Positions 1,258 through 58,368 are shown, counted from the stretch's first letter. The stretch: 64,000 nt of DNA from an uncultured bacterium (GCA_963701085.1 OY969561.1:1120001-1184000); one strand, 5' to 3'. The notes: generated by a model not told the origin, from the letters alone. Made by a program: numbers and translations.

Positions 1258-2439
1258 CTATTGCTTAATCAACTTTTGCTTTTTGAGAGACGTTTTTTTT
1301 GTTGTAGCTTTTTGTTTAATTTCTTCATTTTTACGTTTTAATGCTTCAGGAAGTGTAATAGTCTCTTTTTTAACTTTTTCAAAATCTTCTTTTGCATCAG
1401 CTATAACTTGTTCGTTATTGGGAACATAGAGCTGATAATTTCTTTGGGTGTCGCCTTGTTCAGTTATATTTGCAGTAGAACTGATATAGGTTTTTTTGCC
1501 TTCACTTTCAATAACTATATCTTTACCATGCTGCTTTGCGCGTGAACCTAATTGTGGTTTGAAGATATTTACTGAAACCTTAGAATCATGCAGTTGTTGT
1601 AATAGTGGAATACTGGGAGCAGTTAAAGCGCTATAATCAACAATAACTTCAGCGTTTGGTCCTAATTTACTGAGGGAATTGACTACGTCCTTATTAGTGA
1701 GGGTCATAGTTCGTAATTTTACGGTACCCTGGTTTTGAGCAGCATTATCAAATCGTCGAGCAAGAGATTTATTAAGATTAGTATCTTTTGAACTGTATAT
1801 GCTGATTTTGGTTGGTGTGTTTAGAAGCGTAGTTTTTTGTGTTTCTGGCTTCATTGGAGATTGATTTTTTATCATTTTGTATGCTGGCGTGATAATATCC
1901 ATATCTCCTTCTATTTTCATGCCAGATTCAAAATTGAACCGTTGACCAGCTTTGCCTGGCTTATGTTGCCAGGTGCTATTAGTTGCGTTAGCTGATCCGA
2001 ATAACAGTATACCTGTCTTTGGAGTTTGTTTTGATGGACTTGTATCAACGCCAACAAGTATCTTCCCATGTATATTGGGGTCTCGTTTGGTGGTTGTTGT
2101 TTGATATTTGTCCATAGGGTTTTGTGCATGAGAACCAACCGTAAGATAAACATTTGCACCTCTATTAACGGCTGCATTCATGCTTTCAATGGATTTATCT
2201 TGGCTTAATACATACTTTTCCATAGCATAATTTTGTAGATTTTCATTTTGATAAGCTTTGTTAATAAGGTACGGATAATTGTCCTTAAAATTACTTGTAA
2301 AGCGAATGCTTTTTTCTGGTGATTTGGGCGTGCTGATAGATCTATTGAGGGGCTGTAAAGCCTTTGAGGGATCCATTCCCCATAATGGAACCATAAGAAT
2401 AAGAGAAAAAAGAGTGATAAATAGCTGTTTTTTTATCAT
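1258..2439 (-). CDS. Secreted phospholipase D-superfamily protein (two HKD-like halves)
   Basis: Signal peptide from ATG 2439; HGKILVGVD...GSAN and HGKDIVIE...STAN motifs; basic C-terminus. Confidence 0.65.
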   Translation of the reverse strand: MIKKQLFITLFSLILMVPLWGMDPSKALQPLNRSISTPKSPEKSIRFTSNFKDNYPYLINKAYQNENLQNYAMEKYVLSQDKSIESMNAAVNRGANVYLTVGSHAQNPMDKYQTTTTKRDPNIHGKILVGVDTSPSKQTPKTGILLFGSANATNSTWQHKPGKAGQRFNFESGMKIEGDMDIITPAYKMIKNQSPMKPETQKTTLLNTPTKISIYSSKDTNLNKSLARRFDNAAQNQGTVKLRTMTLTNKDVVNSLSKLGPNAEVIVDYSALTAPSIPLLQQLHDSKVSVNIFKPQLGSRAKQHGKDIVIESEGKKTYISSTANITEQGDTQRNYQLYVPNNEQVIADAKEDFEKVKKETITLPEALKRKNEEIKQKATTKKTSLKKQKLIKQ

Positions 2440-2547
2440 TATTGCTCCATTTAAGGTAAAAAACCTCATTATTTAGCTATTTTTAATATAGCTTTAATGT
2501 TTCTAATTGTCAAGTATATGATGATTTATTCGGTGTGAATGGGCCTA

Positions 2548-2581
2548 AAAAAACCCCTTGCTAATCAAAGCAGGGGGTTTG
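2548..2581 (-). terminator. Intrinsic terminator-like hairpin
   Basis: aaaccccttgct-aatcaa-agcagggggttt with A/T tracts, downstream of the 2610..3791 gene. Confidence 0.55.
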
Positions 2582-2609
2582 TATTATGTGCGCAAATTAT
2601 GTGAGTTTT

Positions 2610-3791
2610 TTATCGGGTAAAACGGCTTGGTATAAGGTTGTTGCACTGTGCTCCAATACCACCAAGCAGCTTTGCAAAGACAGCGGGCAATTTATCGTAT
2701 TTATACGCAAGAATTATGCAGACCGTTAAGAAAGTGACTCCAATGGCAGTTTTGACAGAATACATAGAATCTCTGCGTATTTGAGGGGTAAATTTCTTAG
2801 AAGTAGTTGATTTTGGTCTGGTAACATCTTTTTGTTCTGGCAATTTGATGGCAAATTTAAAAACGTTATCTTCCTTGATTAGAGCGTATGTTGGGGTTTT
2901 TGAAGTTGTTGTATAGTCTATATCAATGGCGAGAGTATTATCGTTGGCATCTTTATAGGTAATTTCACAGTTCATATTTTCACGATTTATTCGAGTGATG
3001 TTGCCTTGATAGACCGTGATGCTGTTTGTCATGTTGTCGAAGTTACCCGTCAAAACACCTGATAATTTTGGCTTTTTTTGTTCTGTGTCAGATGAAGTTT
3101 TTTCACTTCCTAAGTCAATAACATACCTTTGCAGCCCGCCCTGTGTAGTTTCTAGAATGGTGATATGGGTTTCTTTATTATATTCTGCGTTTGCTGTGAA
3201 TAGTATGGTTTTTAGGTTATATTCTGTGTCTCTATAGGTAAGCTCATCGAGGCCATCGATGGTTTGTTTGCTATTAACATAGGTAAAACATGGAATGCTT
3301 CGATCTGGAGTGTTGGTAAAACATGCAGTGATTTGAAACTGTGCAGCGATTGTATCTCTTGGGCTACGGCTTGGGCTGGTTAGTGAAGAGCTTGGTGGGG
3401 TTGGCTTTTGCCAGTCAAGGTCGCTTATTGCAGTGATTTCCTGCAATTCAGCAAAGGCGCGTGGAGATAATTTTGGACTAGCTTGTGCAGCAAGGGTGCG
3501 TGGAGATAGTTTTGGACTGCCAGATTCTGTTAAATTAAGCGGCGGAATTATTGATACAGCGCGTGGAGAGCTATTTGGTGTTGTTTGTAAAGACAAGCTC
3601 AACGTTGTATCTGAAGAATTGTTTGAGTTATTGCGTGGAGAAAGTTGTTGTGAGTTTTGTTGTTTTAGTCTTTCACTGAGTGCTAGCACAGCCGCTGAAT
3701 TGTCCTCTCCTGAAGTATCCATGGCTACACTTGTATTTGCAGCAATGAAGAGTCCACAGAGAGCAATGCGAATCGTTATTTTAACTTTCAT
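2610..3791 (-). CDS. Hypothetical secreted, membrane-anchored protein with SPR/SPK-rich N-terminal region
   Basis: Signal peptide, repeated SPR/SPKLSPR, C-terminal hydrophobic segment. Confidence 0.75.
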   Translation of the reverse strand: MKVKITIRIALCGLFIAANTSVAMDTSGEDNSAAVLALSERLKQQNSQQLSPRNNSNNSSDTTLSLSLQTTPNSSPRAVSIIPPLNLTESGSPKLSPRTLAAQASPKLSPRAFAELQEITAISDLDWQKPTPPSSSLTSPSRSPRDTIAAQFQITACFTNTPDRSIPCFTYVNSKQTIDGLDELTYRDTEYNLKTILFTANAEYNKETHITILETTQGGLQRYVIDLGSEKTSSDTEQKKPKLSGVLTGNFDNMTNSITVYQGNITRINRENMNCEITYKDANDNTLAIDIDYTTTSKTPTYALIKEDNVFKFAIKLPEQKDVTRPKSTTSKKFTPQIRRDSMYSVKTAIGVTFLTVCIILAYKYDKLPAVFAKLLGGIGAQCNNLIPSRFTR

Positions 3792-3865
3792 AAAAAAATC
3801 CTCTTCTTTTGATAATTGATGTGATTAAAAACTTGCCTCAAGTCTAATAATTTGGGTTTGATTTA

Positions 3866-5002: not shown

Positions 5003-5009
5003 GATTTAT

Positions 5010-5669: not shown

Positions 5670-5701
5670 ACAAAAAAGACTACTATTCTCTTTTCAAATT
5701 T

Positions 5702-6088
5702 TCAAGAAAAATAACATGCAAGGGCGAGCGCTATGTTAACTACATATAAAGAGGTGCAGATTGGGCAGAGTGTTCGTATTTTAAAATACAAAATATAGGC
5801 AAATACAACTGATACTGCCACGCCAGCCAATGTGAGTATAAGAGTAAAGGTATGCATGTGCATGGTTGTTAGCGCAATTACTGCACAATAATATAAGGCT
5901 GATGCCCAGATATTTGAGATGCCAAGCATTTTTCCATATGGGCTTTGGAAGGCGCGTGAGCATGAAATTTTATCAGAAATATCACATGCAGGTTTAAATT
6001 GCGCATCTTGTTTGAGTTTGCGTTCTACGATTATACCGTACGCTGAAATTGCAAGGCCAATGAGTGCAAGAATAATAATGATCATCAT
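5702..6088 (-). CDS. Vitamin K epoxide reductase (VKOR) family protein
   Basis: CDISDKISC and CPIC motifs, TM helices; likely start ATG 6088 with AGGAG RBS. Confidence 0.88.
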   Translation of the reverse strand: MMIIIILALIGLAISAYGIIVERKLKQDAQFKPACDISDKISCSRAFQSPYGKMLGISNIWASALYYCAVIALTTMHMHTFTLILTLAGVAVSVVFAYILYFKIRTLCPICTSLYVVNIALALACYFS

Positions 6089-6170
6089 GAGAGGTCTCCT
6101 TTTATAGTGCTGCGCACTATGGTTTTTGTGAATTAAAACATTATCCTTTTTATTATCAAGATTCTCTTCC

Positions 6171-6303: not shown

Positions 6304-6364
6304 ACGGGGAATTGAGTTCAGAGAGCTGAATTGCATTTCAAAGAAAAAATATGATAATCGATAA

Positions 6365-7282
6365 CTATTGTGAGCGTAAAGATATTTTATCAAGTTTCGC
6401 TCGCGCTTTCTTAAGTGATACTGCATGGTGTTGTATTCCTTGCCACACATCGCCAACTTTTTTTATACGCTGTTCAACATTGTTAATGCTATATTTTTGT
6501 GAATTCATGTTCTTAGCCAACAGTTCTTCCCAGGTAACTGGCATTGCAACCGGAGCACCTTCGTGTGCACGCACGGCATAGGGAGGGATGACAGTTGCAC
6601 CAAATCCATTGCGCAACCAATCAATAAAAATACGTTTGCCACGGTGAGCTTTATGCATAGTGACCGTAACCATATCAGGAAATTGTGCAGCGAGTAGCTT
6701 TGCAATATCATGAGCAAAGGTACGTACTTCTTCAAAGGTGTGTAGTCGTTTAAGGGGAACAACAATATGAGCACCGCGCGATCCAGTGAGCATACAAAAT
6801 GTTGGCAATTCGCATTCATCGAGTATTTTTTTCAGTTCTACCGCAGCACGTTGCACATCACCAAATGAATGTGCATCTGCAGGATCAAGATCAAAAATAA
6901 GTCTGTCAGGTTTTTCAAGATTATCGGTGCGGCTAAGCCATACGTGAGGCGTTATGCATGCTTGATTGGCGAGATAGAGTAATGTTGCAGGTTTATCAAT
7001 GACTACATAGTGCACCAATCCCTCAGTTTGTCGTGGTATTGCAACACGCGTTATCCAATCTGGAAAATAATCACCGGCATCTTTTTGGAAGAAACCTTCG
7101 TGGTTAATTCCATTGGGAAAGCGTTGCATGGAGATAGGACGATTATCGCAATAGGGGAGCATGATAGGGGCGATCATGTGATAGTAATTGATTAAATCAC
7201 CTTTTGTAATATCAGATTTGCCGAATAAAACTTTGTCGGCATTGCTTATTTCAACGGTGTAGCGCCCACTTTTAATCTTCAT
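6365..7282 (-). CDS. ligD: LigD polymerase (AEP) domain, stand-alone
   Basis: SNADKVLF, TKGDLINYY, RFPNGI, FFQK, PDRLIFDLDP, TGSRGAH, IFIDWLRN, PYAVRA. Confidence 0.92.
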   Translation of the reverse strand: MKIKSGRYTVEISNADKVLFGKSDITKGDLINYYHMIAPIMLPYCDNRPISMQRFPNGINHEGFFQKDAGDYFPDWITRVAIPRQTEGLVHYVVIDKPATLLYLANQACITPHVWLSRTDNLEKPDRLIFDLDPADAHSFGDVQRAAVELKKILDECELPTFCMLTGSRGAHIVVPLKRLHTFEEVRTFAHDIAKLLAAQFPDMVTVTMHKAHRGKRIFIDWLRNGFGATVIPPYAVRAHEGAPVAMPVTWEELLAKNMNSQKYSINNVEQRIKKVGDVWQGIQHHAVSLKKARAKLDKISLRSQ

Positions 7283-7938
7283 TTTTTTGTTTTTTTTTTG
7301 GATTCTATTTCTTCTATTGTTTTTCCTGAAATGGCTGATTCCGGTTGTGAGTTGACGGGGTTGCGACGTGCATCAGCATATTCATCCCGCATTTTGATCA
7401 AAAGCCATTTTTTCATATCATCGCCACTTGTGCGGATAAGTGCGTAGCCGCCCTGCAATTTTTTACCGTGTAGATTCACCTCTATTTGTCCGTTTTTATA
7501 TGATTGTGCAAGCGGAACAATTGTGCCATTTTGTTCTTTGATATTTTCAAATGTTCCGGTGTCCCACACAATAACCGATCCTGCACCATATTCACCTTCA
7601 GGAATAATGCCTTCAAAAGTTGCATAATCCATAGGGTGATCTTCTGTTTCAATGGCTAAGCGTTTTTCGTGAGGGTCTGTTGAAGGACCTTTAGGAATGG
7701 CCCATGATTTGAGTACACCATCAATTTCTAATCTAAAATCATAGTGCAGATGACTCGCGTTATGTTTTTGTATGACAAAAATTGGTTTATTTTTTGGAGC
7801 TGTCATGGAATTTCCTTGTGGTTCGGGAGAGACAGAAAAGTTGCGTTTCTTTTTATAGATCAACAATGCATCATACGGTATAAGCATGAACCCCAAACCA
7901 ATAAGAAGTGCCGTGACTGCAATTGCTTTTTTAATCAT
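7279..7938 (-). CDS. LigD 3'-phosphoesterase domain, stand-alone
   Basis: FVIQKHNASHLHYDFRLE, SWAIPKGPS, KRLAIETEDHP, YGAGSVIVWDTG; ATGA overlap with the Pol gene. Confidence 0.92.
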   Translation of the reverse strand: MIKKAIAVTALLIGLGFMLIPYDALLIYKKKRNFSVSPEPQGNSMTAPKNKPIFVIQKHNASHLHYDFRLEIDGVLKSWAIPKGPSTDPHEKRLAIETEDHPMDYATFEGIIPEGEYGAGSVIVWDTGTFENIKEQNGTIVPLAQSYKNGQIEVNLHGKKLQGGYALIRTSGDDMKKWLLIKMRDEYADARRNPVNSQPESAISGKTIEEIESKKKTKK

Positions 7939-8040: not shown

Positions 8041-8826
8041 TTATTCTCTGCTGGTAGGTGTAGTTTTTTTTTCATCGAGAATGCTTCTTATAGTCTGAGG
8101 AACAATTATTTTATATAACATTTCATATGTTTTTATTTTTTTCTCATGTAATGCTTCACGTTTTTTTTCTTGTTGCAGTAATTTAACGAACTTTTTACCA
8201 GATTGTGTTTGATAGATATCGGTGAAGTTTTGTTGAAGAAGGGAGATTAGTTCTCGATCAAAACTTAGGCCTAGCAACGTTGGGAGGAAAAAGTTGGTAT
8301 CAATGTCTAGCCTCTTAAATAGTTTGATAATATTGTCTTTTGTCCATGCAGTGATTTTTTTTAGGATAGTTGTATCAACAGTAGCATTACCTTCTTGTTG
8401 CATCCAGAGTCCAAACACAAGTCTATTTAATTTGTGGAGTAGTTTTTCTTCAAAAACAAGCTTGGTTAAAAGGACGTTTACTTCTTCTTGTGAGTGTTGT
8501 TGTATAAACATACCAAGAGTTAGTATAGAGTTAGGGTCTTCATTTTTCATTTTCTCTACAACCGTAACAATTTCCTCAACACTTTCGCCTCTTGTTTTAC
8601 CGGGACCCCACACCAGCTCTTTAAATCGGTTATATGATTGTTTAATCCGAGCAGTCCAGGTGAGAGGTTGGTAGCTTTTTGTTTGATATATTGTTTTTGG
8701 TGTATAAGTAGGCAATCGTCGTAATTTCCCTGTGCGACGGACTGTTGTTGATGTCATTCCCCAAACATTACTCAGGCCGCTGAGGGCTGCAATGAATAAA
8801 AAGTGATAGAGTAAACTTTTTTTCAC
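8041..8826 (-). CDS. Hypothetical secreted protein
   Basis: 261-aa ORF, GTG start, signal peptide ending VWG-M. Confidence 0.7.
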   Translation of the reverse strand: MKKSLLYHFLFIAALSGLSNVWGMTSTTVRRTGKLRRLPTYTPKTIYQTKSYQPLTWTARIKQSYNRFKELVWGPGKTRGESVEEIVTVVEKMKNEDPNSILTLGMFIQQHSQEEVNVLLTKLVFEEKLLHKLNRLVFGLWMQQEGNATVDTTILKKITAWTKDNIIKLFKRLDIDTNFFLPTLLGLSFDRELISLLQQNFTDIYQTQSGKKFVKLLQQEKKREALHEKKIKTYEMLYKIIVPQTIRSILDEKKTTPTSRE

Positions 8827-9099: not shown

Positions 9100-10606
9100 C
9101 TATAAAAATTTTATACATCCCATAATAAATGTAGTTCAGGTTTTGCGAGCAGTTGTTGTTCTTATCTCATTTTTGTTTTCAATAAAATCATTGTAATATT
9201 TGCGGCTATATTTATATTTGTTGGCGATGATCGTTTCGATATTGAATTCATAATACATATGTGCTATGAATGTGATCAGTTCTTTTAACAATGGCATACC
9301 ATCAGCGCTTTATTGTTGCAAAAGATGTGTGAATAATGCGCATTGGGTATGGGGTGAAGTAAGGCATAGAAAGGCATGCATTACTTGTTCTTGATTGGTT
9401 ACAGCTTTGTATAGTGGGTGATTTTTCTATTGTATAAAAGTTGTATAGTTTAGTGTATTTTTCACACGCAAGATCCACTGCTCTTTTACCATCTTTATTT
9501 CTGGAATGTATGTTCAGGCCATGAGATGTGAGAAACGGTAAGTATAGTTCGAACTTGGGAGCAACAATAGATGTTATTACTGCGCATAAATGTAGTTGAG
9601 AGTTTTTCTGTGTATCTTTTGTATGGATGAGTTTGCTTGCAATAAAGGGATTATCAGCAATAAAAGAATAGAATAAATTTAAATCATCATTATAAGCAGA
9701 AAAAAAATGAATTAAAGGCGTTGTTTGGTAATTATTGCTTTTGATTGTTGGATTGGCGTCTTTTTCTATGAGTAGTTTAATTACATTGAGTTGCTTTCTA
9801 GAGCACGCCATATGTAGAGCTGTACTGCCATTATAATTTTGGTGATTGATGGTCCTGGTATCATGAGAAAGAAGCAATTTAACACAATCTTCTTTTCCGT
9901 TACCTGCTGCTATCTGGAGTGGAATATTCCCTGATTTGTCAGATATATTTGCAGCTTGAGGCGCTTTACTGAGCATTGATGTAACTGTTGTGGTTAATCC
10001 TAGTTCACATGCTACGTGCAGTGGGGTGCAGCCTTTTGAGGTGCGTGAATTGGTATCTATATTTTCATGGGTGATTAATAATTGGTAAATTTCTTCATTG
10101 ATACTTCTCTCACTTGCCAAATAAAAAAGTGACTTTCCATCACTGTTTATGTAATTAACATCTGCATCTGCTAATAATGCATCTCGCACTGCTCTTGTAT
10201 CGTTCTTTGCTATGCCTTGAAGACACAAGTGTGTTGCATCAGAGGGGTTAGAGATATTTTTTTGCGTTGTTTCCATTGCATGGGATGTGTGGGGGATGCA
10301 TAAGAAAAGAAAAGCGAGTGATGATAGATGGTATAAACTACTATAGTTGCTCGCTTGAAATTTTTTTCCTGCGCTCGTTCTGATGCTTCGACATTGCTCA
10401 GCAGTGAACACCCGCCTGCCCTCCGAAGCCTCGGCGAAGGACGGGTTGAAGAATATCTTAGAGCGCTCGAAGACATCATCTTCAACCCAGGTTCCACTCC
10501 GTTTCACTCGGGTACCCATCAGAAGGAACTGAAGATGGGTGTAACTGACGAGCGCTAGAGAAGACATGGATAGGGCAAGTTTAATGGTTGTCATCATATA
10601 TTTCAT
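9100..10606 (-). pseudogene. Ankyrin-repeat protein, paralog of 10603..11826, disrupted near the 3' end
   Basis: TPLHVA/TALH repeats. Versus the paralog: frameshift near 9412, in-frame TAA at 9310-9312, further indel near 9162. Repeat cluster in frame in the N-terminus. Confidence 0.7.
10368..10556. repeat. Nested palindromic repeat cluster in the 5' region of the ankyrin gene
   Basis: gcgctcgttctga...cctgccctccgaagcctcggcgaaggacgg...gagcgctcgaagac...gggtacccatc...gatgggt...gacgagcgc. Confidence 0.8.
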
Positions 10607-11826
10607 GAAGCACTCCATAATAAATGTAGTTCAGGTTTTGCGAGCAGTTGTTGTTTTATCTGGTTTTTGTTTTCAATATAATCGTCGTAATATTTTTTGT
10701 TATGTTTATATTTTTTGGCAACGATTGTCTCAATATTGAGCTCATAATAATTGCGTATAATGTGGACTAACAATTCTTCTGGCAGTGTATGGCCATTGGC
10801 ACTTTGTTGTTCCAACATTGTTTTGAATAATGCGCATGGTGTGTGTGGTGAAATAAAGCGTAAGAAAGCATGCATTACTTGTTCTTGATTGGTTACATCT
10901 TTATACATGTTGTGTAATTTTTCTATTGTATAAAAGTTGTATAGTTTAGTGTATTTTTCATACGCAAGATCCACCGCTCTTTTACCCTCATTATTTCTGG
11001 CATTTATATCCAAGTTGTGGGATGCAAGAAATAATAAGTAACTATCGAATTTAGGTTCGAGGATGCCTTGTATTGTTGCACATAAATGAAACTGATTGTT
11101 TTTTTGTTTATCTTTTTTATGGATGATTTTTTTTGCAACAGAGGGATTATCAGCAAGAAAAGAATAGAATAAATTTAAATCATCATAACAAACAGAAAAA
11201 AGACGAGTTAAAGGCGTTACTTGATAATTGTTTTTGATTGTTGGGTCGGCATCTTTTTCTATGAGTAGTTTGATTGTGTCAAGTTGTCTTACGTTGCATG
11301 CTTGATGTAGAGCTGTAAAGCCACCGTAATCTTGGTGATTGCTGGTCCTGATATCATGAGAAAGAAACAATGTAACACAATCTTTTTTCCCGTGATATGC
11401 TGCCACATGGAGTGGAATACTCCCTCCTCTGCTGCATATGTTTGCAGTTTGAGGAGCTTTACTGAGCATTGATGCAACTGTGGTGGTTAATCCTAGTTCA
11501 CATGCTACGTATAATGGAGTGGCGCTATAGGAGTTGCGTGAATTGATATCTATATTTTCATGAGTGATTAATAATTTGTAAATTTCTTCATTACTATTTT
11601 TCTCACATGCTAAATAAAAAAGTGACTTTCCATCACTGATTATGTGATTAACATCTGCACCTGCTAATAATGCAATTTTTACTTGGTTTGGATTGTTTTT
11701 TGCTATGCCTTGAAGGCACAATAGTGTTGCATCAGAGGGGTTAGTATTTTTTTGCGTTATTTCCATTGCGTATGATGTGTGGGGGATACATAAGAAAAGG
11801 GAGATGACCAAAGTAATATGTTTCAT
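10603..11826 (-). CDS. Secreted ankyrin-repeat protein with C-terminal F-box/PRANC-like motif
   Basis: Signal peptide; TPLYVA, IPLHVA, TALHQA repeats; TLPEELLVHII near C-terminus. Confidence 0.88.
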   Translation of the reverse strand: MKHITLVISLFLCIPHTSYAMEITQKNTNPSDATLLCLQGIAKNNPNQVKIALLAGADVNHIISDGKSLFYLACEKNSNEEIYKLLITHENIDINSRNSYSATPLYVACELGLTTTVASMLSKAPQTANICSRGGSIPLHVAAYHGKKDCVTLFLSHDIRTSNHQDYGGFTALHQACNVRQLDTIKLLIEKDADPTIKNNYQVTPLTRLFSVCYDDLNLFYSFLADNPSVAKKIIHKKDKQKNNQFHLCATIQGILEPKFDSYLLFLASHNLDINARNNEGKRAVDLAYEKYTKLYNFYTIEKLHNMYKDVTNQEQVMHAFLRFISPHTPCALFKTMLEQQSANGHTLPEELLVHIIRNYYELNIETIVAKKYKHNKKYYDDYIENKNQIKQQLLAKPELHLLWSAS

Positions 11827-17135: not shown

Positions 17136-19610
17136 TTATAATTCTTTATTCATTACTTGTTGCGTATCAGTGACGCGCGCAAGCGTATGTTCTTCAAATC
17201 CTAGCGTAATGAGTGTATCAATAAAATCCATTGGTTTAAGTCCAATTTCAGCTGCTTGGTGGAATAAGCATGTTGCTGGTGTGAGTCCGGGTAATGTGTT
17301 ATTTTCAAGAATAACAACGCGTTCTTTTTTTGTTGGGCTTTGCGTGGCTGTTTTGGTAAAAACAGTCAATGCGTGAATATCCTTTGCATTGTAGTGTTGT
17401 AAAAGCGCGTTCCATAATGCGTTGTACAAACTCGAGTGTTGCGTGTGGTAGTGGTGCGGGTGTTTGATTTTCCCCAGCACCGGGTAAGAATTTTTCTTCA
17501 ATAGAAAGTATTCCTGCAGCAGAAACCGCCTGGCTTGGTGGTAATGCACGCGGATGTTCATTACCAATAACTCCCACGGTGAGTTCCATGCCGGTAATAC
17601 ATTCTTCTATTAATACACAATCTTTTTCTTGTAAAACTTTATTAATTGCGACAATTAATTCTTCATCATTGGTTACTTTTTGCACCATTACGCTGCAGCC
17701 ATCATCATGTGGTTTAACTATGAGTGGGTATGCAAGACTATCTTTTTCTTTATCCGCACTCTTCGATACATTTTTGCAAGCAAAAACACTCAGGGCGAGC
17801 GGGAGGGGCAGAGTATTTTCTTTCTGTGAAGTTTTTTCTCCCCGCTCGCCCTGAGTGTTCTTCGTAGCTTCAGCGGAGAAGAATGTATCGAAGGGTGCAA
17901 CCCACGTATTTTTCATAATCAAAATATTCTTTGGAACATCAAAGCCATGCGCAGCAAGTAGTTGGTTTGCTTTATACTTATTCATACACAACGCGCTTGC
18001 AAGCACCGATGATCCGTTATACGGCAAGCCAAGCATTTCTAGTGTGCCTTGTACTGAACCGTTTTCACCTTCACCTCCATGCAGCGCAATAAATACAAAA
18101 TCAGCAATAGATGATAAATCACCCCATTTAATTTTTTGTGATGGTTGCAACAGTTCAACAATTTCTTTAGTAGAATTACGCACGAGTTGTGATTGCGTTA
18201 AAATGTAGAGCTCTAAACTATCGCTGACAAAAACAGGAATTGGTTCGTATTTGTGGGGAGATAGTTTATAAAATACGTTGCGGCCAGAATCGAGTGATGT
18301 TTCTTTTTCATTTGATTTGCCGCCGAGTAGTATTGCAACACGATTTTTTTGTGTATTCATAGTTGGAGATTCCAGTTTTTCTTGAGTAATAATCGTTTCC
18401 AGCATGTTGTATTGTTGGAGTTCTGTTTCAATAATATGGTTAATAAGTTGCGCAGGGCTCATATTAATTTCTGCTGCTTGATTAAAAATATAACTTGATG
18501 GTGCCATGCCAGAGAAGGTGTTAGGATCGATAATAACAACAGTGCCATCGTTGGTTACAAATCCATCGATACGTCCCATATTGCTCAGCTCTAATGCATG
18601 CATTACGTTAATACATGTTTGTTGAATACGTGCAGTAGTTTTAGCGCTACAGCGAGCAGGTGTACGTTTTACACCACGGCCAGGCATGTATTTTTGTTCG
18701 TAATCAAAAAAGCCTATTTCAGTGTGCGCAATGCTTTCTGTGGGAGGTAATGCAAAAAATTCACCTGTCCTGTGATCTGTTAATACAATGCAGGTAAATT
18801 CCATTCCAACAATTTTTTCTTCGATAAGTACGCGCTTTTTTTTGTTAGGATCTATACAGCACGCTTTTTTGAGTGCCTGTTCAAGAGTGCTGCTGTTTGC
18901 GATAGAAATACCAAGGCTGGAGCCTTCATTATAAGGTTTAACAACAAAATGATCAGCATTGTAGCGTGCATCGTTTTTATTCTTTAGCGCTCGTCCTGAA
19001 CTTGTTGAAGGATTTTCTTCGAGCGCTCGAGGATATCCTTCAACAAGTTCAGGACGAGCGCCGGAACATAAAGATTGGGCAGAATTATTGCATTCTGGAT
19101 AATGCCCGCATTAATAAGTCGGTCAAAAATATTGTTTTTGTAGTGCTCAAAATTATCAACTTCATATGGTTCAACGGCGATAAAGCGTGGTGTTGCAATG
19201 CCCGCATTATTGAGGAATGTTTTGAGTACAATTTTATCATTGCGTAATGCACTTGCAAGAACTCCTGAACCAAGATAGGGAATGCCAATAATTTCTAAAA
19301 AACCTTGCAATATACCATCTTCAGCGTAACGGCCATGTTGTGCAATGTAGATAAAATCAACATGATTTTTAAGATCATCCCATGCAATAAGTTCTGCTTC
19401 ATGAGTAAGGCGATGTTCAAAATCAGTTGTTTTTCCACGATGTAAAAAATGCCAAGGAAGTATGTATATTTTTGCATCACTTTGAAATAGTGGAATAACT
19501 GAATAGCGTGATGTATCAACATAATCACAGATTGTTCTGCCGGAGTTAAAAGAAACTTCTTTTTCAAGGGATTTGCCGCCCATAAGGACGCCAACGCGTA
19601 GTTTTTGCAT
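17136..19610 (-). CDS. ddl: D-alanine--D-alanine ligase with two tandem Ddl units (two frameshifts, two repeat inserts)
   Basis: Unit 1: GGKSLEKEVSFNSG, HGRYAEDG, VKPYNEGSSLG, RIDGF, DPNTFSG. Unit 2: GGKSNEKETSLDSG, HGGEGENG, VKPHDDGCS, RIDCF, ENNTLPGLT. Frame changes near 18990 and 17355. Confidence 0.88.
17756..17899. repeat. Inverted family-A pair (with nested B-like loop) in frame in ddl unit 2
   Basis: cttcgatacatttttgcaagcaaaaacactcagggcgagcggg ... cccgctcgccctgagtg...gtatcgaagggtgc. Confidence 0.88.
18986..19063. repeat. Family-A palindrome inside ddl unit 1
   Basis: gcgctcgtcctgaacttgttgaaggat...atccttcaacaagttcaggacgagcgc, near-perfect palindrome. Confidence 0.9.
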
Positions 19611-40267: not shown

Positions 40268-41098
40268 GTCAAGTAATCGGCTTAATCGCCTTTGTAAGCG
40301 TTTAATTTCATTAAAATTATATTCAATAAGCTCTCGGAAATTTTCTTGTTCTAATTCAGTGTATGCATAATGCGCTTGTGCAGCTAATCTCTTTTTAAGT
40401 TCGCAGAGCTTTTCTGGGGGATAAAGTGCGATAAGATCATTTAAAATTTTATGAAGATTTTTTAAGGCAATTTTTGCTTTAGAAGATAATCTTTTTTTAT
40501 CTAAACCTTGTATAAAGTTACCCGCTTTTGTAGCTAATAACTCTTTTTTACAAAATAGTGCGTCCATATCAATCGCATAAAAATGATCATTGTCCTCATC
40601 ATAAAAAAGATTGCCGTTATGCCGATCGCTATTGTTGAGGAATATATCGAGAGCCACAATTTTGTAGAGATCTTTGTGTGTCATGAGACTTTCTAATTTT
40701 GCTCTGTTGGTAAGTCCTGATCTTATGCTAAAAAAACTAATTGCATTATTCATTCTCCTCACTTCATTGCCAGGTACAAGGGTGTGGAGAGTTTTTATGT
40801 GATGGGGAAATTTATCAACAGAGCTGAGAGAAGGGTCGTACGGGGGAAATATTTTTACGTGATTAATGTTAACGCCGATAGATCTTCCTACTTCAGCTCC
40901 AAGAGCATCATTAAGTGCGTGGTTGGGACTGCGAGGATATTTTAAGATAAATTTTCTGTTATGAGCATCCTCCACAAAAATAATTCTTCTGACGCATTTT
41001 ATCTGTTGTAATGGTGGAGTAAAAAAATCATTTGAAAAAGCAATGCTCGTAAAACATAATAACACAACAAACAATAAACGAGCGTTTATAGTGGCCAT
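40265..41098 (-). CDS. Secreted HipA/PI3-4-kinase-like kinase
   Basis: Signal peptide; FILK, LDIFLNNSDRHNGNL, AIDMD. Confidence 0.72.
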   Translation of the reverse strand: MATINARLLFVVLLCFTSIAFSNDFFTPPLQQIKCVRRIIFVEDAHNRKFILKYPRSPNHALNDALGAEVGRSIGVNINHVKIFPPYDPSLSSVDKFPHHIKTLHTLVPGNEVRRMNNAISFFSIRSGLTNRAKLESLMTHKDLYKIVALDIFLNNSDRHNGNLFYDEDNDHFYAIDMDALFCKKELLATKAGNFIQGLDKKRLSSKAKIALKNLHKILNDLIALYPPEKLCELKKRLAAQAHYAYTELEQENFRELIEYNFNEIKRLQRRLSRLLD

Positions 41099-41868
41099 TG
41101 TACACTCACTTTTTTGCGTGATGTAGTGATAAGATTGCGTTCTGTGAGCCATGATAAGAATATGTGCTTGATGAATAGGGCGCGTTCAAGACATGCGGCA
41201 ACTGCAGCTATTTTTGTATCGTTGGTGGGGAAAATGGTGCTGAGGTGTAGGCGTTTTATGGTTTGAGCGATACTTAAATATCGTTTGCATGTTTTTATTT
41301 CATGTTCAATTGTTTCAATGAATGTGATTAATGGGTGAGAAAGATCGGTCGGATTTTTTTTGTTAACGTGATGTTCGCCAATTGCGCGTATTAATTCTTG
41401 TTCAAGTTCATGCGGTGATACGCTGCATAACATTTCAAAGTTGTAATCAGATTTCCAGCGTGACCAGCGGGTGGCATGTGTAAGGTAATGGTAGTCAGAT
41501 GATAAGAGTAAGCTGGTGGTGCCGTACGCGGTGAGTCCTGTACCCACCACAATGTTATAGCGATAGTGCCAGATGAGATTTTGTAGTAACTCTTTTGCGC
41601 TGTTGTAATTATCTTTGGTGAATGTTTGTTGTGCTTTTTCCATGATGTGGAGTCCAATATCTCTCATTTGCATGCCAACAGCATGAATAGTTGATGTTGT
41701 GGTGGTGTTAATTGTTGGACTTATGTTTGTGGTATAGTTTGGCGTAGTGGTGACGTTTATGTTATGAGGTATAGGTTGTGCCCCGGAACTTTGCGTGGAA
41801 GGCGTAATGTGTAGTGGCGATAGTGCAATAAAAAATAATATGTAGAGAATTTTTGTTGTATGTTTCAC
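41086..41868 (-). CDS. Hypothetical protein, paralog of 41892..42674
   Basis: Shared motifs WHYRY, FEMLC, PTDLSHPL, EIKTCKRY, LERALFIKH. Confidence 0.8.
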   Translation of the reverse strand: MKHTTKILYILFFIALSPLHITPSTQSSGAQPIPHNINVTTTPNYTTNISPTINTTTTSTIHAVGMQMRDIGLHIMEKAQQTFTKDNYNSAKELLQNLIWHYRYNIVVGTGLTAYGTTSLLLSSDYHYLTHATRWSRWKSDYNFEMLCSVSPHELEQELIRAIGEHHVNKKNPTDLSHPLITFIETIEHEIKTCKRYLSIAQTIKRLHLSTIFPTNDTKIAAVAACLERALFIKHIFLSWLTERNLITTSRKKVSVQWPL

Positions 41869-52671: not shown

Positions 52672-54237
52672 TCAGTTATTGCTTAAGCTTTCTCCAATAG
52701 GCTCTTGGGCTTCTTGAAGATTTTTGTGATTTACGTACATGTGCATAATTAAGAGCGCTATTTCTTGCGGTAGCGTGTCACAACCTTCAATTGTATAGTT
52801 TTTGAGCAACAAGTATTTAGGAGTAGCCTCTTTTTTTATTTCAAATTCATTAACCATTTTTTTGAACCACATTTGTTGTCCTGCAAAATCGAATGCATTC
52901 TCCATTTTTTTTGTAAAAGAGTTATAGCTTTTTATGTAAGGATCTGCGTCATATTCTAATAATAATTGTGTAAGCTGTTGATCTTGGTACTTAACAGCAG
53001 ATATTAATGAAGTTTGCTCTGTATTTTTTTGTCGGAAGTTAGGCCTAAGACCCTTTTGTAGTAAGCGGTGTGCTTTGTTGAAGAGGTCATTGAATTCAGT
53101 ATTATTTTCCAAGAGACCATTGAAATCAATTTTATATGATGAAGGGGAGGACCAGCATTCAATACCATCTTTGATATGGAATGTAGAATTATTTTTCAAA
53201 AACTCAGAGACTGCATTATTTTTCACTAGTTTTTTTATTGTATTTCGTTTTTCTATAATGTTGAATAAGCGATCTTTCTGAGTGTCATAATGATAATGTA
53301 ATTGTTGTACAGTACGCATAATTGATTGCATTGTTTTTTGCGGCAATGTGGTATCGGTATAGTTTTTGAATGACCAGTATTTAAATAAATTATTTGTTGT
53401 AGCCATACGTTTCAGCCAACCTTTTGGTTCGCCTTCTTCAAATTCAAATGAGTTTTTACCACACCACCCATCACGTTTTTTATAAGGATTTGCGCCATAT
53501 TGTAATAATAAATGGGCAAGCGGTTTGTCATTGTTTGAAGAAGCATACATGAGAGCTGTTAATGGAAGGAATGTTCCATCGGCAGGCATGTTTTTTTCGC
53601 GTAACAACCGTTCCGTGATACATAATAATTCATTGCGTGTATTTTCATCGGATATAGCGCGTCGGCTTTCAGCAATAAGCTTCAATAGATAATTGCTGGT
53701 ATGCCATCCAAAATCTATTTTTTGTGCATGCGTTATGACTGTATGTGCTTTTTTAAATTGTAGATTATTATTATTAATGATCGCGTACAACAATGATTGG
53801 TCATTATTTCCCAGAACGATGCTAAAATACCACGGATCTTGTAAATCTTTTGCGGTGAATGGTTTGTATTTTTGGCGAATAATTGTGCAAAGATGATCTA
53901 TTTTTTTTTGTACTGTATGGCAACCTAGTTTTTTGATTATAAGGCTATAGCTATTACTGTAGTAGTCGGACGCGCATCCGGTTATTATTTTTTGCATGAC
54001 TTTTTCTTGGCCGTAATATTCATGAAAAAATTTGTTGGTCTCATACAGAGCACGGATATTTTCTTTGAGGTTGTTGATATTAGGTTTATGCTGCTTGCGG
54101 AGATGTTCGGTAACAGTCCATGCATTATCAGAGTTACGTAGTACCATTTCTAATGAGATGGCGGATGCTGGTATTTCCATTCCATGAACTGTTGGGTGTG
54201 CGATAAGTAAAAAAGAAAAAATTATTTTTTTATGCAT
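52672..54237 (-). CDS. Secreted ankyrin-repeat protein with duplicated module and F-box-like motifs
   Basis: LTALMYA...LLLQYGANPY; TSLISAV...LLLEYDADPY; TLPQEIALLI. Confidence 0.82.
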   Translation of the reverse strand: MHKKIIFSFLLIAHPTVHGMEIPASAISLEMVLRNSDNAWTVTEHLRKQHKPNINNLKENIRALYETNKFFHEYYGQEKVMQKIITGCASDYYSNSYSLIIKKLGCHTVQKKIDHLCTIIRQKYKPFTAKDLQDPWYFSIVLGNNDQSLLYAIINNNNLQFKKAHTVITHAQKIDFGWHTSNYLLKLIAESRRAISDENTRNELLCITERLLREKNMPADGTFLPLTALMYASSNNDKPLAHLLLQYGANPYKKRDGWCGKNSFEFEEGEPKGWLKRMATTNNLFKYWSFKNYTDTTLPQKTMQSIMRTVQQLHYHYDTQKDRLFNIIEKRNTIKKLVKNNAVSEFLKNNSTFHIKDGIECWSSPSSYKIDFNGLLENNTEFNDLFNKAHRLLQKGLRPNFRQKNTEQTSLISAVKYQDQQLTQLLLEYDADPYIKSYNSFTKKMENAFDFAGQQMWFKKMVNEFEIKKEATPKYLLLKNYTIEGCDTLPQEIALLIMHMYVNHKNLQEAQEPIGESLSNN

Positions 54238-55166
54238 GAATTTCTATTGTTTATTTTAAGTTTTTTATTTTCTGCAACTTCATCAATTATTTCCTGGAGC
54301 CAGCCTTCTTCTGGTTCAATATCAAAAGCATTTACCATTTTGTTTCTCAACCCACTATATGTTTCAAGATAAGGGTTGGCGCCATATTCTAATAATAATC
54401 GAACAAACTTTTTGCATGTAACTGAGTAGTTTAATGGAGTATATTGAGTTTTTCCTTCGCGACCATCAGGAAGAATTCCTTTTTTAAGTAAGCCTTGTGC
54501 AATAGTGAGCAGCTTCTTGCATTTTTTTTCGTCGAATTTTTCATGTAAGTCTAGCCAGAATAGGTGGTCAGCGATTTTGAATAAAGGATTTTTCCCATGA
54601 CCATAATTAAAAGATAATTTTTCTGTATTATTTAGTATGGTAATTGCTGTTTCTAGATTGAGATTGTCAATTGCTATATATACTAATGATCGATTGAGAG
54701 GTCGTCCATAGAATTTATAACCATACGTGGTAGTTATTGCTAGATACCAAGGATCCAGAAGATCATTTTCACTGAATTTTTTGTATCCAAAGCGAGCAGT
54801 ATCAGTAAAGTGTTTTATTTTGGCATATATTGCACGGCATTTTAATTCACGTGCAGTGCTTTTATCATTTGAATTATTATAACGTAAACATGATCTGATG
54901 ATCCCTTGTGCGATTTTTTCTTGAGCGTAATAATCGTGAAAAAATTTATTAGTGTCAGAAAGTGATCTAATATCTGTTCTTATGCCACACGGCTGATAGT
55001 TATGACTCATGCAGAGGTGGTCAGTAATTTGCGGTATAAGATCATCATTGAAAAGTACCATTGCGGTGTTAACCGCATCATTATTTTCAACAATGTTTGG
55101 TCTTTTCATGCCATGAGTTAATGTGTTTGTGATGAGTAGCAAAGAAAATAGTATCTGTTTATTCAT
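54222..55166 (-). CDS. Secreted ankyrin-repeat protein
   Basis: Signal peptide; TPLNYS...LLLEYGANPY. Confidence 0.82.
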   Translation of the reverse strand: MNKQILFSLLLITNTLTHGMKRPNIVENNDAVNTAMVLFNDDLIPQITDHLCMSHNYQPCGIRTDIRSLSDTNKFFHDYYAQEKIAQGIIRSCLRYNNSNDKSTARELKCRAIYAKIKHFTDTARFGYKKFSENDLLDPWYLAITTTYGYKFYGRPLNRSLVYIAIDNLNLETAITILNNTEKLSFNYGHGKNPLFKIADHLFWLDLHEKFDEKKCKKLLTIAQGLLKKGILPDGREGKTQYTPLNYSVTCKKFVRLLLEYGANPYLETYSGLRNKMVNAFDIEPEEGWLQEIIDEVAENKKLKINNRNSCIKK

Positions 55167-55200
55167 GTAATGATCTTTAAATCAATGTATGACCGAGTTG

Positions 55201-55554
55201 TTATAATTTGTGAGTTTGTCTGTTACGTAAAAAAATTGAAAGTTCCGTATCTCGAGCGCCATTCTTTTTTAAAAAGGTTTCACAGCGTTTACATCCATGA
55301 AGCGTTGCTGCTTCTAATGGTGTCATATCATAATACAAAGATGACATATCTGTTTCTTTTTTATTAATATTAGTACCTGTATAGATATGTTTTTTAATTT
55401 TTTCACATGCCTTATGACTGGAATTATCCCAATGATCAAAAATGCTCCCTTCGTGATGTGTATGATTTGAAACTTCTTTTTTGGTTTCCATGCATACATT
55501 ATGATGTGGGTGTGTCATGATGATTAAAGTAGCTGATATTATTATTCTTTTCAC
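55201..55554 (-). CDS. Small secreted ankyrin-repeat protein
   Basis: MTPLEAATLHG...FLKKNGA. Confidence 0.7.
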   Translation of the reverse strand: MKRIIISATLIIMTHPHHNVCMETKKEVSNHTHHEGSIFDHWDNSSHKACEKIKKHIYTGTNINKKETDMSSLYYDMTPLEAATLHGCKRCETFLKKNGARDTELSIFLRNRQTHKL

Positions 55555-55592
55555 AAAAATCCCGGGTTGTTTTTTTATCGTATTACAAATTG

Positions 55593-56570
55593 TTACAGAG
55601 TTATTTTAGTTTGATCTTCAATTGTTTTATATGAATTTTTACCAACTTCCCATACTTTATATCCAATAAGATCTATTAATTCCTGAAGTAATGTTAATTC
55701 TTCAAGATTATGATGTTTGAAGAGCAAATAGTTGAAAATTGTTTGTTGTTTATTGTCAACCATTTTTTTGAGCCAACCAGTTTCTTCTAAGTCAAAGGCA
55801 CTGCATATACGTTCATAATAATGTCCACAATAAATTTTGTTTACTACAATTTTACAAGGATCTGCATTATACCACAGTAATAAGTGTGCACATTCTTTAT
55901 CAATGGAGCTAGCGAGGACTGCTGCGATCAATGGAGTATTATACTTATTTGAGAGTTTAAAATTTGGATCAGCTCCATGTTCTAATAATAATTCTGCAAT
56001 TGTTAATAATTGTGTTGATTTAAATCTTTTTGCTCTCCTATCGTCACATATTGTGGTCAGTAAAGAGTTATTGATGTTATTTTTAACATCTGTTTTGGCA
56101 TGTATTAAAGTTTTTATTGTATCTAATTGTTGCGCGTGATATGCAGTAGTTAATAATGTTGATTTTGCATCTGCCCATATGGTTATGGTGCTGTTAAGAT
56201 ACCATGTATCTTTTAAGTCATCTTCAGTAAATATTTTGCCTTGCTTTGCTTTGTCAAAAAAGCAACGTATTTTGTTCCCGATTGCATTGTATTTCAAGCA
56301 ACAAGCTATGTTACAATCGCTTATATCATTCTGTAAAGCCATTTGTCTGATAATATTTTGTTGTGTTTTTTCACGGCTGTAATATTCGCATAACGTTGTA
56401 TCAGCCATTGCTAATGAATCAATATCTTTTTTTTCAACCAAAAAAATGTGCGCATTGCAGATTTGTTCAGTGATATGAAACAGCATATTGGGATCATGAA
56501 GTACAGTCAGTTCCATGCTCTGTAGCGCTGTGCTGGTGAGTAGTAAAGAAAAAAATAGTTGTTTTATCAT
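55593..56570 (-). CDS. Secreted ankyrin-repeat protein
   Basis: Probable start ATG 56570 (MIKQLFFSLLL); LLLEHGADPN, TPLIAA. Confidence 0.82.
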   Translation of the reverse strand: MIKQLFFSLLLTSTALQSMELTVLHDPNMLFHITEQICNAHIFLVEKKDIDSLAMADTTLCEYYSREKTQQNIIRQMALQNDISDCNIACCLKYNAIGNKIRCFFDKAKQGKIFTEDDLKDTWYLNSTITIWADAKSTLLTTAYHAQQLDTIKTLIHAKTDVKNNINNSLLTTICDDRRAKRFKSTQLLTIAELLLEHGADPNFKLSNKYNTPLIAAVLASSIDKECAHLLLWYNADPCKIVVNKIYCGHYYERICSAFDLEETGWLKKMVDNKQQTIFNYLLFKHHNLEELTLLQELIDLIGYKVWEVGKNSYKTIEDQTKITL

Positions 56571-56592
56571 GTGAAAATCATGAGGGTAAGAA

Positions 56593-57513
56593 TTAAGTAA
56601 TTTTTTTGCTTTTTGCAACATCGTCAACCATTGCCCGGAACCATTTCTGAGATTCTTCATTTCCACAATTAAAGGCATTTTGGAGCCATGGTTTTTTTTC
56701 ATTGAATGTAGGTAGTATTGTATCAATGGGATATTGTTTTGCAGCCTGCTTAATAGTATAAAAATCTCTATGCTTATAATAGTGCTCATTAAATAATAAT
56801 AAATAAGGGTTCGCTTCATGTTCTAATAATAATCGAGCAAACTCTTTATGGTTTTCCCAAATGCAGATCATGAGCGGAGTGTGTGATGTAATAGTAGGAC
56901 GATCATCTGGATTAGCTTTTTTATGAAGTAATAGCTGGGCAATAAGAAGATTGAGGTTATTAAATTCGCTTCCTTTAGATTTTAGCAGCGATTTGGCTGT
57001 AGACCATAGTGAGCAGGTATTGCTGTCTGCATTGATGTCACTTATGAGCTCAGTTAACATTGTTACATTTGTTATCTGAGCGGCTTCTATAGCGGTACGC
57101 AATAGCGAACGCTGCCAGGAGCTTTTTGTGGCAGTGAGGTACCAGTTATCTTGCAAATCTTCTGGACTAAAGGATTTATTTTTATCAGAAGCAATAGAGA
57201 AAAGATATTCTATTTTGTTGAGTATTGTTTTTTGACCTAAATATTCTGCTGCCCATTGATCGCATATACAATGGCCTCGCGCTACCATTCTGACTATATT
57301 TTTTACATTGTTTTCATAATAAATGCAGAGCGCTTTATTAGTTTGAGAGAGCGTGCCAATCTCTTTTTTGAAGTTAGATGGTTTCATGTCATGAGCAGCG
57401 CACAGTTTTTCAGTAACATGAAACAGTATATCGTGATTATGAAGTACAGTCAGTTCCATGCTATGGATTGCTGTGCTGGTGAGTGCTAAAGAAAAAAGTA
57501 GTTGTTTTATCAT
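56593..57513 (-). CDS. Secreted ankyrin-repeat protein
   Basis: MIKQLLFSLAL signal; TPLMICI...LLLEHEANPY. Confidence 0.82.
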   Translation of the reverse strand: MIKQLLFSLALTSTAIHSMELTVLHNHDILFHVTEKLCAAHDMKPSNFKKEIGTLSQTNKALCIYYENNVKNIVRMVARGHCICDQWAAEYLGQKTILNKIEYLFSIASDKNKSFSPEDLQDNWYLTATKSSWQRSLLRTAIEAAQITNVTMLTELISDINADSNTCSLWSTAKSLLKSKGSEFNNLNLLIAQLLLHKKANPDDRPTITSHTPLMICIWENHKEFARLLLEHEANPYLLLFNEHYYKHRDFYTIKQAAKQYPIDTILPTFNEKKPWLQNAFNCGNEESQKWFRAMVDDVAKSKKIT

Positions 57514-57534
57514 GTGAAGTCCTGAGGATAAGTG

Positions 57535-58368
57535 TTAACTGTTTTGTTTATTTTTCTCAATTTCATAGATGAGGCCTGCAAGCCAATGATCTTGTTTGTT
57601 AAAAAGTTCTTCTATTTCAAATGCATCAGAGGCAATCCATTTTAAGTGGGGATTTGCTCCGTGTTCTAATGCTAAACGAGCTACATTTTTATTCTTACTG
57701 CCCACTGCAATGTGGAGTAATGTTGGAGAATAACATCCCTCTTTGCGGCTATCGGGATGAATTTTATTTTCCAATAAGAGCTTAATAATATCGAGGCAGT
57801 CTTCTTTTTGCAGTGCTTCTGCATCTTCACAACATTGTGTGGTAATTAAGACTAAAGGATTTTCCGAGCATCGTGCATTATTGCAATTAATGCCGGCAGT
57901 AATGAGGAGTTTTGCTTTGGTGAATTCACGCTTTTTTATTGCATCCAACAATAATGTGCTATCGTTTGGATAATTCATTGTAGTACTATTAAGGTACCAA
58001 CTATCTTGTACATCATTCTCAGTAAGTTCTTGATCTTTATTTATTTTGGTAAAAATAGTATCTATTTTACCTGCTATTGTTTTGTAACGAAAAAAATCTG
58101 CTATCGAACGATCGCTCATATTTTTATATATCGCCATTTGTCTGACAATGTTTTGTTTGGTTTTTTCAAGGTTATAATATGTATATAACGTTTTATTAGT
58201 TTTTGAGAATGCGGCAATATCCTTTCTTGTTCGTGTTATATGACATTGATTAATATTGCAAATTTGTTCAGTAATGCAGTTGAATGGCTCTGTATAAGAT
58301 AGCACCAGTTCCATGCTCTGTAGCGCTGTGCTGGTGAGTAGTAAAGAAAAAAATAGTTGTTTTATCAT
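57535..58368 (-). CDS. Secreted ankyrin-repeat protein
   Basis: Signal identical to the 56570 gene; TLLHIAV...LALEHGANP. Confidence 0.82.
   Translation of the reverse strand: MIKQLFFSLLLTSTALQSMELVLSYTEPFNCITEQICNINQCHITRTRKDIAAFSKTNKTLYTYYNLEKTKQNIVRQMAIYKNMSDRSIADFFRYKTIAGKIDTIFTKINKDQELTENDVQDSWYLNSTTMNYPNDSTLLLDAIKKREFTKAKLLITAGINCNNARCSENPLVLITTQCCEDAEALQKEDCLDIIKLLLENKIHPDSRKEGCYSPTLLHIAVGSKNKNVARLALEHGANPHLKWIASDAFEIEELFNKQDHWLAGLIYEIEKNKQNS

Follow-up and report, generated by a model that had tools for sequence, protein, structure and literature searches.

We analysed a 64,000-nucleotide stretch of DNA from an uncultured bacterium (GCA_963701085.1 OY969561.1:1120001-1184000), hereafter the window, in which twelve predicted N-termini place a methionine directly after the small residue that ends a hydrophobic export leader. 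Window coordinates count along the whole stretch, and genome coordinates are identified as such. The genome is a single contig of 1,198,634 bp with 37% GC. The records closest to its leucyl-tRNA synthetase (LeuRS) share 59-66% identity with it and bear the names Candidatus Babeliales or candidate division TM6 in their titles; we therefore assign the source organism to the Dependentiae. Members of this phylum are widespread obligate parasites of protists, with export leaders on close to half of their proteins.

All twelve N-termini listed in a preliminary description of the window are present as described, each on the minus strand (Table 1). Met is followed by Glu at eight sites and by Asp at two, in agreement with the ten ME/MD sites counted there, and the remaining two read MT and MK. 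The same description drew the sites from several unrelated families; this holds across the genome, but in the window the six sites at 52.6-58.4 kb belong to ankyrin-family paralogues and the two at 9.3-11.8 kb are likewise paralogous. ORF (open reading frame) 9302-10618, an ankyrin paralogue of ORF 10603-11826, no longer has a start of its own, this being either lost or fused. The true start of ORF 1258-2469 is probably at 2439. The leader start at 56570 is also the real gene start, although ORF 55593-56819 stays open further upstream, and its leader peptide is identical to that at 58368. The type II secretion system (T2SS) genes mentioned in the description are also present: GspF, GspG and pseudopilins lie in the window, and GspC and GspD elsewhere in the genome. 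One of the ten automatic matches in the window, GspG, is a false positive.

Table 1. Leader-to-methionine sites in the window, with the T2SS genes for context (the arrow marks the presumed cleavage position).
Site or feature	Window position	Strand	Leader and following residues	Gene or protein
LWG↓MD	2371..2439	-	MIKKQLFITLFSLILMVPLWG, then MD	PLD-like protein, ORF 1258-2469
SVA↓MD	3717..3791	-	MKVKITIRIALCGLFIAANTSVA, then MD	orphan protein, ORF 2610-3791
VWG↓MT	8752..8826	-	MKKSLLYHFLFIAALSGLSNVWG, GTG start, then MT	orphan, ORF 8041-8826
SHA↓ME	10271..10285	-	leader remnant	inside ORF 9302-10618
SYA↓ME	11761..11826	-	MKHITLVISLFLCIPHTSYA, then ME	ankyrin protein, ORF 10603-11826
ITG↓ME	37735..37794	-	MQKQILFALALCSTNITG, then ME	orphan family, gene 36628-37794
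VHG↓ME	54175..54237	-	MHKKIIFSFLLIAHPTVHG, then ME	ankyrin protein, ORF 52672-54237
THG↓MK	55104..55166	-	MNKQILFSLLLITNTLTHG, then MK	ORF 54222-55166
NVC↓ME	55486..55554	-	MKRIIISATLIIMTHPHHNVC, GTG start, then ME	ORF 55201-55554
LQS↓ME	56511..56570	-	MIKQLFFSLLLTSTALQS, then ME	ankyrin protein, listed ORF 55593-56819
IHS↓ME	57454..57513	-	MIKQLLFSLALTSTAIHS, then ME	ankyrin protein, ORF 56593-57513
LQS↓ME	58309..58368	-	MIKQLFFSLLLTSTALQS, then ME	ankyrin protein, ORF 57535-58368
T2SS genes	27988..30638	+		GspF 27988-29199, GspG 29230-29679, two N-methyl pseudopilins

The pattern was then followed across the genome. Genes were called with a simple codon-usage model, which returned 1172 genes covering 88% of the genome, and 548 of these passed a loose leader filter that demanded a net positive charge in the n-region and an uncharged hydrophobic core nine residues long. 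A strict Met-box was defined as Met with A/G/S/C/T at -1 plus an allowed residue at -3, at the expected cleavage distance. It is found in 216 of the 548 leader-bearing genes, or about one-fifth of all genes, and the same pattern displaced 30, 45, 60 or 80 residues downstream in the same proteins gave 20, 16, 19 and 23 matches. Counted from the start of the hydrophobic core, Met has a frequency of 7.7-10.4% at each of positions +15 to +19, relative to a background of 1.85%. A cleavage scorer blind to the +1 residue likewise returned Met as the commonest residue at +1 (97 of 384 confident cases). The Met-after-leader pattern is real, lies far above chance and extends across the genome.

Aligning the leaders on the Met without any filter (n = 271) gave Ala 82, Gly 63, Ser 42 and Cys 21 at -1 (208/271), Leu 57, Ile 42, Ala 38, Thr 36, Ser 28 and Val 26 at -3 (227/271), and Glu 107 and Asp 25 at +2. 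Among the 216 Met-box proteins the +2 residue is Glu in 100 (46%), Asp in 23 (11%), Asn in 12 (5.6%) and Gln in 11 (5.1%); compared to background frequencies of 5.4%, 5.5%, 6.5% and 4.2%, respectively, only Glu and, weakly, Asp are enriched. The resulting consensus is [L/I/T/A/S/V]-x-[A/G/S/C]↓M-[E>D], with a median leader length of 22 residues. Position -2 is frequently His, Phe or Tyr, and residue 2 is Lys in 202 of the 548 leader-bearing genes, which the filter does not require. Apart from an excess of GGC for Gly, the codons at -1 and +2 are used as elsewhere in the genome, which places the signal at the protein level. A nucleotide motif around the ATG, either a Kozak-like G at -3/+4 or CATG, was rejected for the same codon usage; T at nucleotide -3, from Ser and Cys codons, amounts to 20%.

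The Met is kept over long evolutionary distances. In 128 pairs of homologues that share less than 35% identity and span the site, identity is 78% at +1, 60% at +2 and 57% at -1, compared to 12-25% at +3 to +13 and 33-57% for leader residues. Grouping by the mature part alone gave eight families, of median identity 29-38%, in which the mark is kept in 15/17, 11/12, 10/10, 8/8, 6/7, 5/5, 4/4 and 4/4 members (63/67 in all); in other mature-part families the mark was present in 0/8, 2/20 and 1/6. Among the 24 database relatives listed for gene 36628-37794, 18 open with a clear hydrophobic leader. Met follows a small or Thr residue in 17 of these 18, with Ala in one, and the 17 Met-bearing relatives comprise 13 with Met-Glu, three with Met-Lys and one with Met-Arg. 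Five further relatives, all on short contigs, start at or near the Met.

This conservation bears directly on whether the Met has any function. Leaders may have been added upstream of complete genes of cytoplasmic type, host-derived or bacterial, in which case the +1 Met would be an old initiator that persists as a neutral relic. Several mature parts do look like complete native proteins from the Met onward (Tmk2, a GalU-like protein, a methyltransferase, HAD and C11), and NagZ-like and LAP proteins have a leader followed by a native-looking Met even where the -1 residue is not small. The GalU-like protein, ...IMG↓MTMKINKAVIPAAG, resembles a complete cytoplasmic protein with a leader in front. 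A further case is a pair of tandem thymidylate kinases (genome 723590-724231 and 725039-725773, ~63% identical): Tmk1 is leaderless and begins MPQLTKGILIAIEG..., and Tmk2 carries a leader, ...TSHA↓MENHKQLNRGILIAIEG..., with a Shine-Dalgarno (SD)-like motif before its first ATG. From its sequence, the leader with Met-Glu on Tmk2 suggests an exported nucleotide kinase. The Met of Tmk2, however, aligns three residues upstream of the Tmk1 Met, and because of this offset it is not simply a retained start.

A few genes also share a 5' module of ~90% identity with differing downstream parts, which again suits the addition of a leader. The module spans 125-135 nt of upstream region and leader at 87-94% identity and occurs in four small Met-box genes at three loci (genome 351700-352191, 827190-827720, 910062-910529 and 910742-911221), whose mature parts did not cluster. 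A mobile leader cassette as a general source was rejected, as blastn with the leader plus 60 nt upstream gave 29 cross-family pairs among the 548 genes, most of them 5' flank or neighbouring small paralogues. Other observations, too, speak against a functionless relic. Met, although it has a single codon, is the most conserved position in the divergent pairs and is retained in the eight families described above. Moreover, Glu occupies the second position in 5.7% of 441 leaderless ATG genes and Asp in 2.3%, compared to 46% and 11% after the Met. An origin as old initiator thus fits the leaderless-like mature parts, yet conservation and the Glu preference speak against a mere relic, and we consider a purely neutral Met rather unlikely.

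To describe which proteins carry the mark, the 216 Met-box proteins were clustered, giving 143 BLAST families, of which 111 are singletons, with at least 11 different folds. A Pfam scan of the first 150 of the 195 referenceable Met-box proteins gave no match for 102, ankyrin repeats in 19 and WD40 or beta-propeller domains in 14. The other matches were PLD (2), PLA2_B, peptidase C11, methyltransferase, HAD, HIT, AAA, NTP-transferase, thymidylate kinase, Pyr_redox, PEP-utilizer and DUF2807, and two pseudopilins that are false positives; no envelope-biogenesis protein was found among these 150. Seen from the side of the ankyrin genes (PF12796, n = 36), 19 scored as Met-box and four more did so by eye, and ten leaderless ones are clustered in a single array at genome 513-520 kb. 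By comparison, Met is absent at +1 of Skp (INA↓EQ), TolB (ISA↓DE) and a second Omp85 protein (VGA↓QH), and CtpA, GspD, TolB and others turned up in the list of non-Met-box proteins. Four families were looked up independently, BamA and OmpA/Pal, with unclear starts, among them. The Met is thus seen on ankyrin, WD40, orphan and cytoplasmic-type enzyme proteins and on none of the envelope housekeeping proteins looked up. Given this association with host-directed, eukaryote-like and orphan proteins, the mark could be used to predict effectors in this lineage. Separately, many normally cytoplasmic enzymes have a hydrophobic N-terminal leader of 20-30 residues and lack the Met mark (L005:3668-4756, L003:12523-13626, L055:9704-11200, L017:11064-13538); they include GalE-like proteins, GDP-mannose dehydratase, UDP-glucose dehydrogenase, GT4 glycosyltransferases and PEP synthase.

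Ankyrin and WD40 proteins and eukaryote-like enzymes, all of which include carriers of the mark, are expected to operate inside the host. This is consistent with imitation of host N-termini, whereby Met-Glu or Met-Asp in the host cytosol would evade N-degron recognition or be acetylated as a NatB substrate. Met is a stabilising N-terminal residue and ME and MD are NatB substrates, both of which suit this idea; NatB, however, acts co-translationally on host ribosomes. The composition of the site is also less than a NatB-type signal would predict, as two of the four favoured residues, Asn (12/216) and Gln (11/216), stay at background. With Glu and Asp excluded, hydrophobic residues make up 30 of 93 at +2, near background, and because they are not depleted a Met-hydrophobic degron is not being avoided. 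Signal-peptide-bearing ankyrin proteins of Babela massiliensis have been proposed, in the part of the genome report drawn on here, to reach the amoeba cytoplasm (PMC4378268), which is in favour of a cytosolic fate. Mimicry of host N-termini is possible but improbable, and nothing in the data supports it specifically.

The next question is which ATG is the start. An SD-like motif precedes 51% of the first starts (222 genes), 37% of non-leader genes and 1.8% of the internal Mets. Ahead of true starts, G peaks at -11 to -7 and A is abundant, and the region upstream of the internal Met is not A-rich. Across the leader, T at second codon positions shows three-base periodicity. The charged n-region, the h-region, the -1 and -3 residues, the upstream start and the presence of an encoded signal peptidase I are those of type I signal peptides. 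The invariant Cys at +1 of signal peptidase II substrates is absent, and separate lipobox-like leaders exist, for example PpiC-like ...LPG↓C. The Sec-type leader of the preliminary description is accordingly translated from the upstream start, and the internal start that it had offered as an option is not supported by the SD-like motifs.

A second start at the internal ATG, giving exported and cytoplasmic forms of each protein, would account for the strict requirement for ATG. Public gene calls for four relatives of gene 36628-37794 (P0007, P0013, P0015 and P0019) do start at ME, on contigs of only 1.8-4.2 kb. Dual initiation is nonetheless very improbable given the scarcity of SD-like motifs and the missing A-rich region at the internal Met. 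It also leaves the small -1 and aliphatic -3 residues unexplained, a separate leaderless Tmk gene adjoins the leader-bearing one, and a cytoplasmic form would bring no obvious benefit to ~200 host-directed proteins. That the genes truly begin at the internal Met, the leaders being untranslated DNA open by chance, is scarcely credible: AT-rich upstream DNA often reads as a Lys/Ile/Phe/Leu-rich peptide, but the SD signal lies at the upstream start, n-, h- and c-regions can be recognised in the leaders, of which 208 of 271 have a small residue at -1, codon periodicity runs through them, and their residues are 33-57% identical in distant pairs.

The sole signal peptidase I gene of the genome encodes a LepB of the Peptidase_S26 family (genome 661135-661956, minus strand). 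A second signal peptidase of other specificity was rejected on this count. Given a single LepB, and housekeeping substrates that have no such Met, the pattern is unlikely to stem from an altered specificity of the peptidase. Some relatives (G003, G006, G009, G016 and G018) have two full-length S26 signal peptidases.

Sampled DNA of related genomes was run through the same pipeline. Met-boxes were found in 83 of 201 leader-bearing genes from the same genus (G007; 3-9 in shifted controls) and in 43 of 159 from another genus of the same family (G012; 5-9), as compared to 216 of 548 in the genome analysed here (16-23). Six genomes from other families of the order, pooled, gave 25 of 275 (4-9) without the Glu preference, one of these genomes having 7 of 27. 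In Ignavibacteriaceae, a small outgroup sample of 100 kb with 33 leaders, there were none (0/33; 0-4). The Met rule is therefore strong in its own genus and family, weak in the order's other families and absent in this small outgroup sample. Many of the 33 Ignavibacteriaceae leaders end in ...A↓Q, ...AQ↓S or ...GQ↓Q. From these 33 leaders only, the ends look like the Bacteroidetes Q-rule, discussed below, outside Bacteroidetes proper.

Several other genes of the window deserve mention. On the minus strand, the LigD primase-polymerase domain (6365-7282) and 3'-phosphoesterase domain (7279-7938) are separate, overlapping genes (6365-7938), the latter with a hydrophobic N-terminus. Also on the minus strand (17305-19610), an N-terminally extended D-Ala-D-Ala ligase of 499 aa adjoins an ORF of 208 aa with the Ddl N-terminal domain only, which may be a fragment or duplicate. 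Two eukaryote-like proteins were not scored with the Met mark: a leader-bearing peptidase A4 protein (39196-40110, plus strand), of a mainly fungal family, and a protein with a weak PI3/PI4-kinase match (40265-41152, minus strand). The plus strand further encodes a Fic-domain protein (24953-25660) and a HepT-like/NTase-substrate-binding gene (62310-62795) that adjoins a MazG-like gene (62799-63176).

Taking these results together, we propose that the leaders are Sec/signal-peptidase-I leaders with a class-specific Met-Glu rule, and that Met-Glu is, on balance, probably a selected mark of the mature N-terminus. Translation from the upstream ATG or GTG would yield a leader-bearing precursor, which the single LepB-type signal peptidase I would be expected to cut after the small residue, so that the mature protein would start with Met, mostly Met-Glu. 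The dipeptide may then act at or after cleavage in the sorting, stability or modification of host-directed cargo. The Met was probably first the initiator of leaderless ancestors, with the leader added upstream. The rule does not apply to export in this organism generally but to one class of protein, which comprises repeat proteins (ankyrin and WD40), orphans, lipases and proteases of eukaryote-like type, and copies of enzymes that are normally cytoplasmic. We read Met-Glu as a functional mark because purifying selection has preserved the Met among paralogues and orthologues that are otherwise deeply diverged.

A number of points weigh against this proposal. We identified no mechanism that reads Met-Glu. 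The cleavage position is itself inferred, with a crude, untrained scorer, and that scorer when blind to +1 picks the exact Met site in just 105 of 197 Met-box proteins that lack additional membrane segments; most of its other picks fall 3-5 residues upstream of the Met. The analysis of divergent pairs demanded alignment across the leader and so favoured conserved leaders, and the three-residue offset of the Tmk2 Met is awkward for the suggested origin. As BLAST clusters, the families may hide an older common ancestry among effectors that evolve fast. The gene caller and leader filter are crude: internal starts let some cytoplasmic proteins pass, PNPase, PcrA and GltX among them, and leaders without Lys or Arg are missed. 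Finally, the housekeeping contrast is partly circular: it draws on an NCBIfam scan of the 87 longest of 247 non-Met-box proteins, a different library from that used for the Met-box proteins.

As a tentative extension, which we put forward as a conjecture, Met-Glu could be a second-step code, an "M-rule", in one family of Babeliales: once all proteins have passed the same Sec/LepB step, it would set host-directed cargo apart from proteins that stay in the periplasm or outer membrane. The T2SS might read it, or an N-terminus-modifying enzyme, for which an order-wide, membrane-anchored RimI-like N-acetyltransferase is a candidate; alternatively, it might decide the fate of the protein in the host cytosol. 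Both GNAT genes of the genome have hydrophobic N-termini. One (genome 539693-540343) has a cleavable-looking leader, IQA↓SE. The other is RimI-like (genome 912729-913289) and its best solved relatives are N-terminal acetyltransferases; its N-terminal membrane anchor is conserved across the order, with a lipobox-like LAAC in its own genus. The anchored RimI-like GNAT is present in 15 of 15 genomes of the same family and in 6 of 9 from the order's other families. A correlation with the Met rule was rejected, since families in which the rule is weak have the enzyme as well, and it is no more than a lead.

The closest known parallel is the Q-rule of Bacteroidetes, in which Gln at +1 of signal peptidase I substrates is cyclised to pyroglutamate by glutaminyl cyclase (PMC5837995; PMC10653852). 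As far as the portions of these papers used here allow a comparison, both are a lineage-restricted excess of one residue directly after ordinary Sec/signal peptidase I leaders, and both were found statistically from predicted cleavage sites. The rules differ in that the residue here is Met, mostly then Glu, and in that it concerns one protein class, ~40% of leader-bearing genes, rather than most signal peptidase I substrates. In addition, the housekeeping exported proteins looked at here (Skp, TolB, the second Omp85 and CtpA) are without Met, the Met rule is strongest in one family of Babeliales, and no modifying enzyme is known.

Two other types of leader invite comparison. Lipoprotein leaders have a lipobox, L-[AS]-[GA]↓C, and a +2 sorting rule. 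They resemble the leaders described here in the small residue at the end, the frequent Leu or Ile at -3, the fixed +1 and an acidic +2 as possible sorting code, but differ at +1, which is Met and not Cys, and at -2, here often His, Phe or Tyr. Since +1 is Met and not Cys, thioether lipidation and cleavage by LspA cannot apply. Type IV pilin and pseudopilin leaders, G↓F or G↓M ... E5, are likewise cut after a small residue, sometimes before Met and with Glu nearby; in pilins, however, a short charged leader lies before the cut and the hydrophobic stretch after it, whereas here the hydrophobic stretch lies before the cut.

Within the phylum, Babela and Chromulinavorax share the abundance of leader-bearing ankyrin or host-directed proteins. 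The portions of their genome reports consulted give signal sequences on ~44% of the coding sequences of Chromulinavorax destructans (PMC6561590) and signal peptides on 79 of 126 ankyrin proteins of Babela massiliensis, in which a T2SS was the sole secretion system detected (PMC4378268). The word "methionine" is absent from the main texts of both reports, which, supplements aside, do not describe a rule of Met at +1 and Glu at +2. Nor did we find a description of a Met-Glu rule in searches of the literature on signal peptides and effectors of Dependentiae, Babeliales, TM6 or Babela.

A conserved, class-specific mark at the cleavage site would offer a testable hypothesis of sorting or stability, as well as a practical effector predictor for metagenome-assembled genomes. 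It also carries a warning for annotation: automatic calling may place the start of such genes at the internal Met, where some of the database relatives do begin. The Met rule would be a second case, after the Bacteroidetes Q-rule, of lineage-specific selection on the residue exposed by signal peptidase I. If the M-rule is true, one dipeptide would be enough to predict ~200 effectors in each genome of this uncultured lineage of parasites. The finding bears on how Dependentiae tell host-directed cargo from envelope proteins, given that the T2SS is the only secretion system reported in the part of the Babela account used here.

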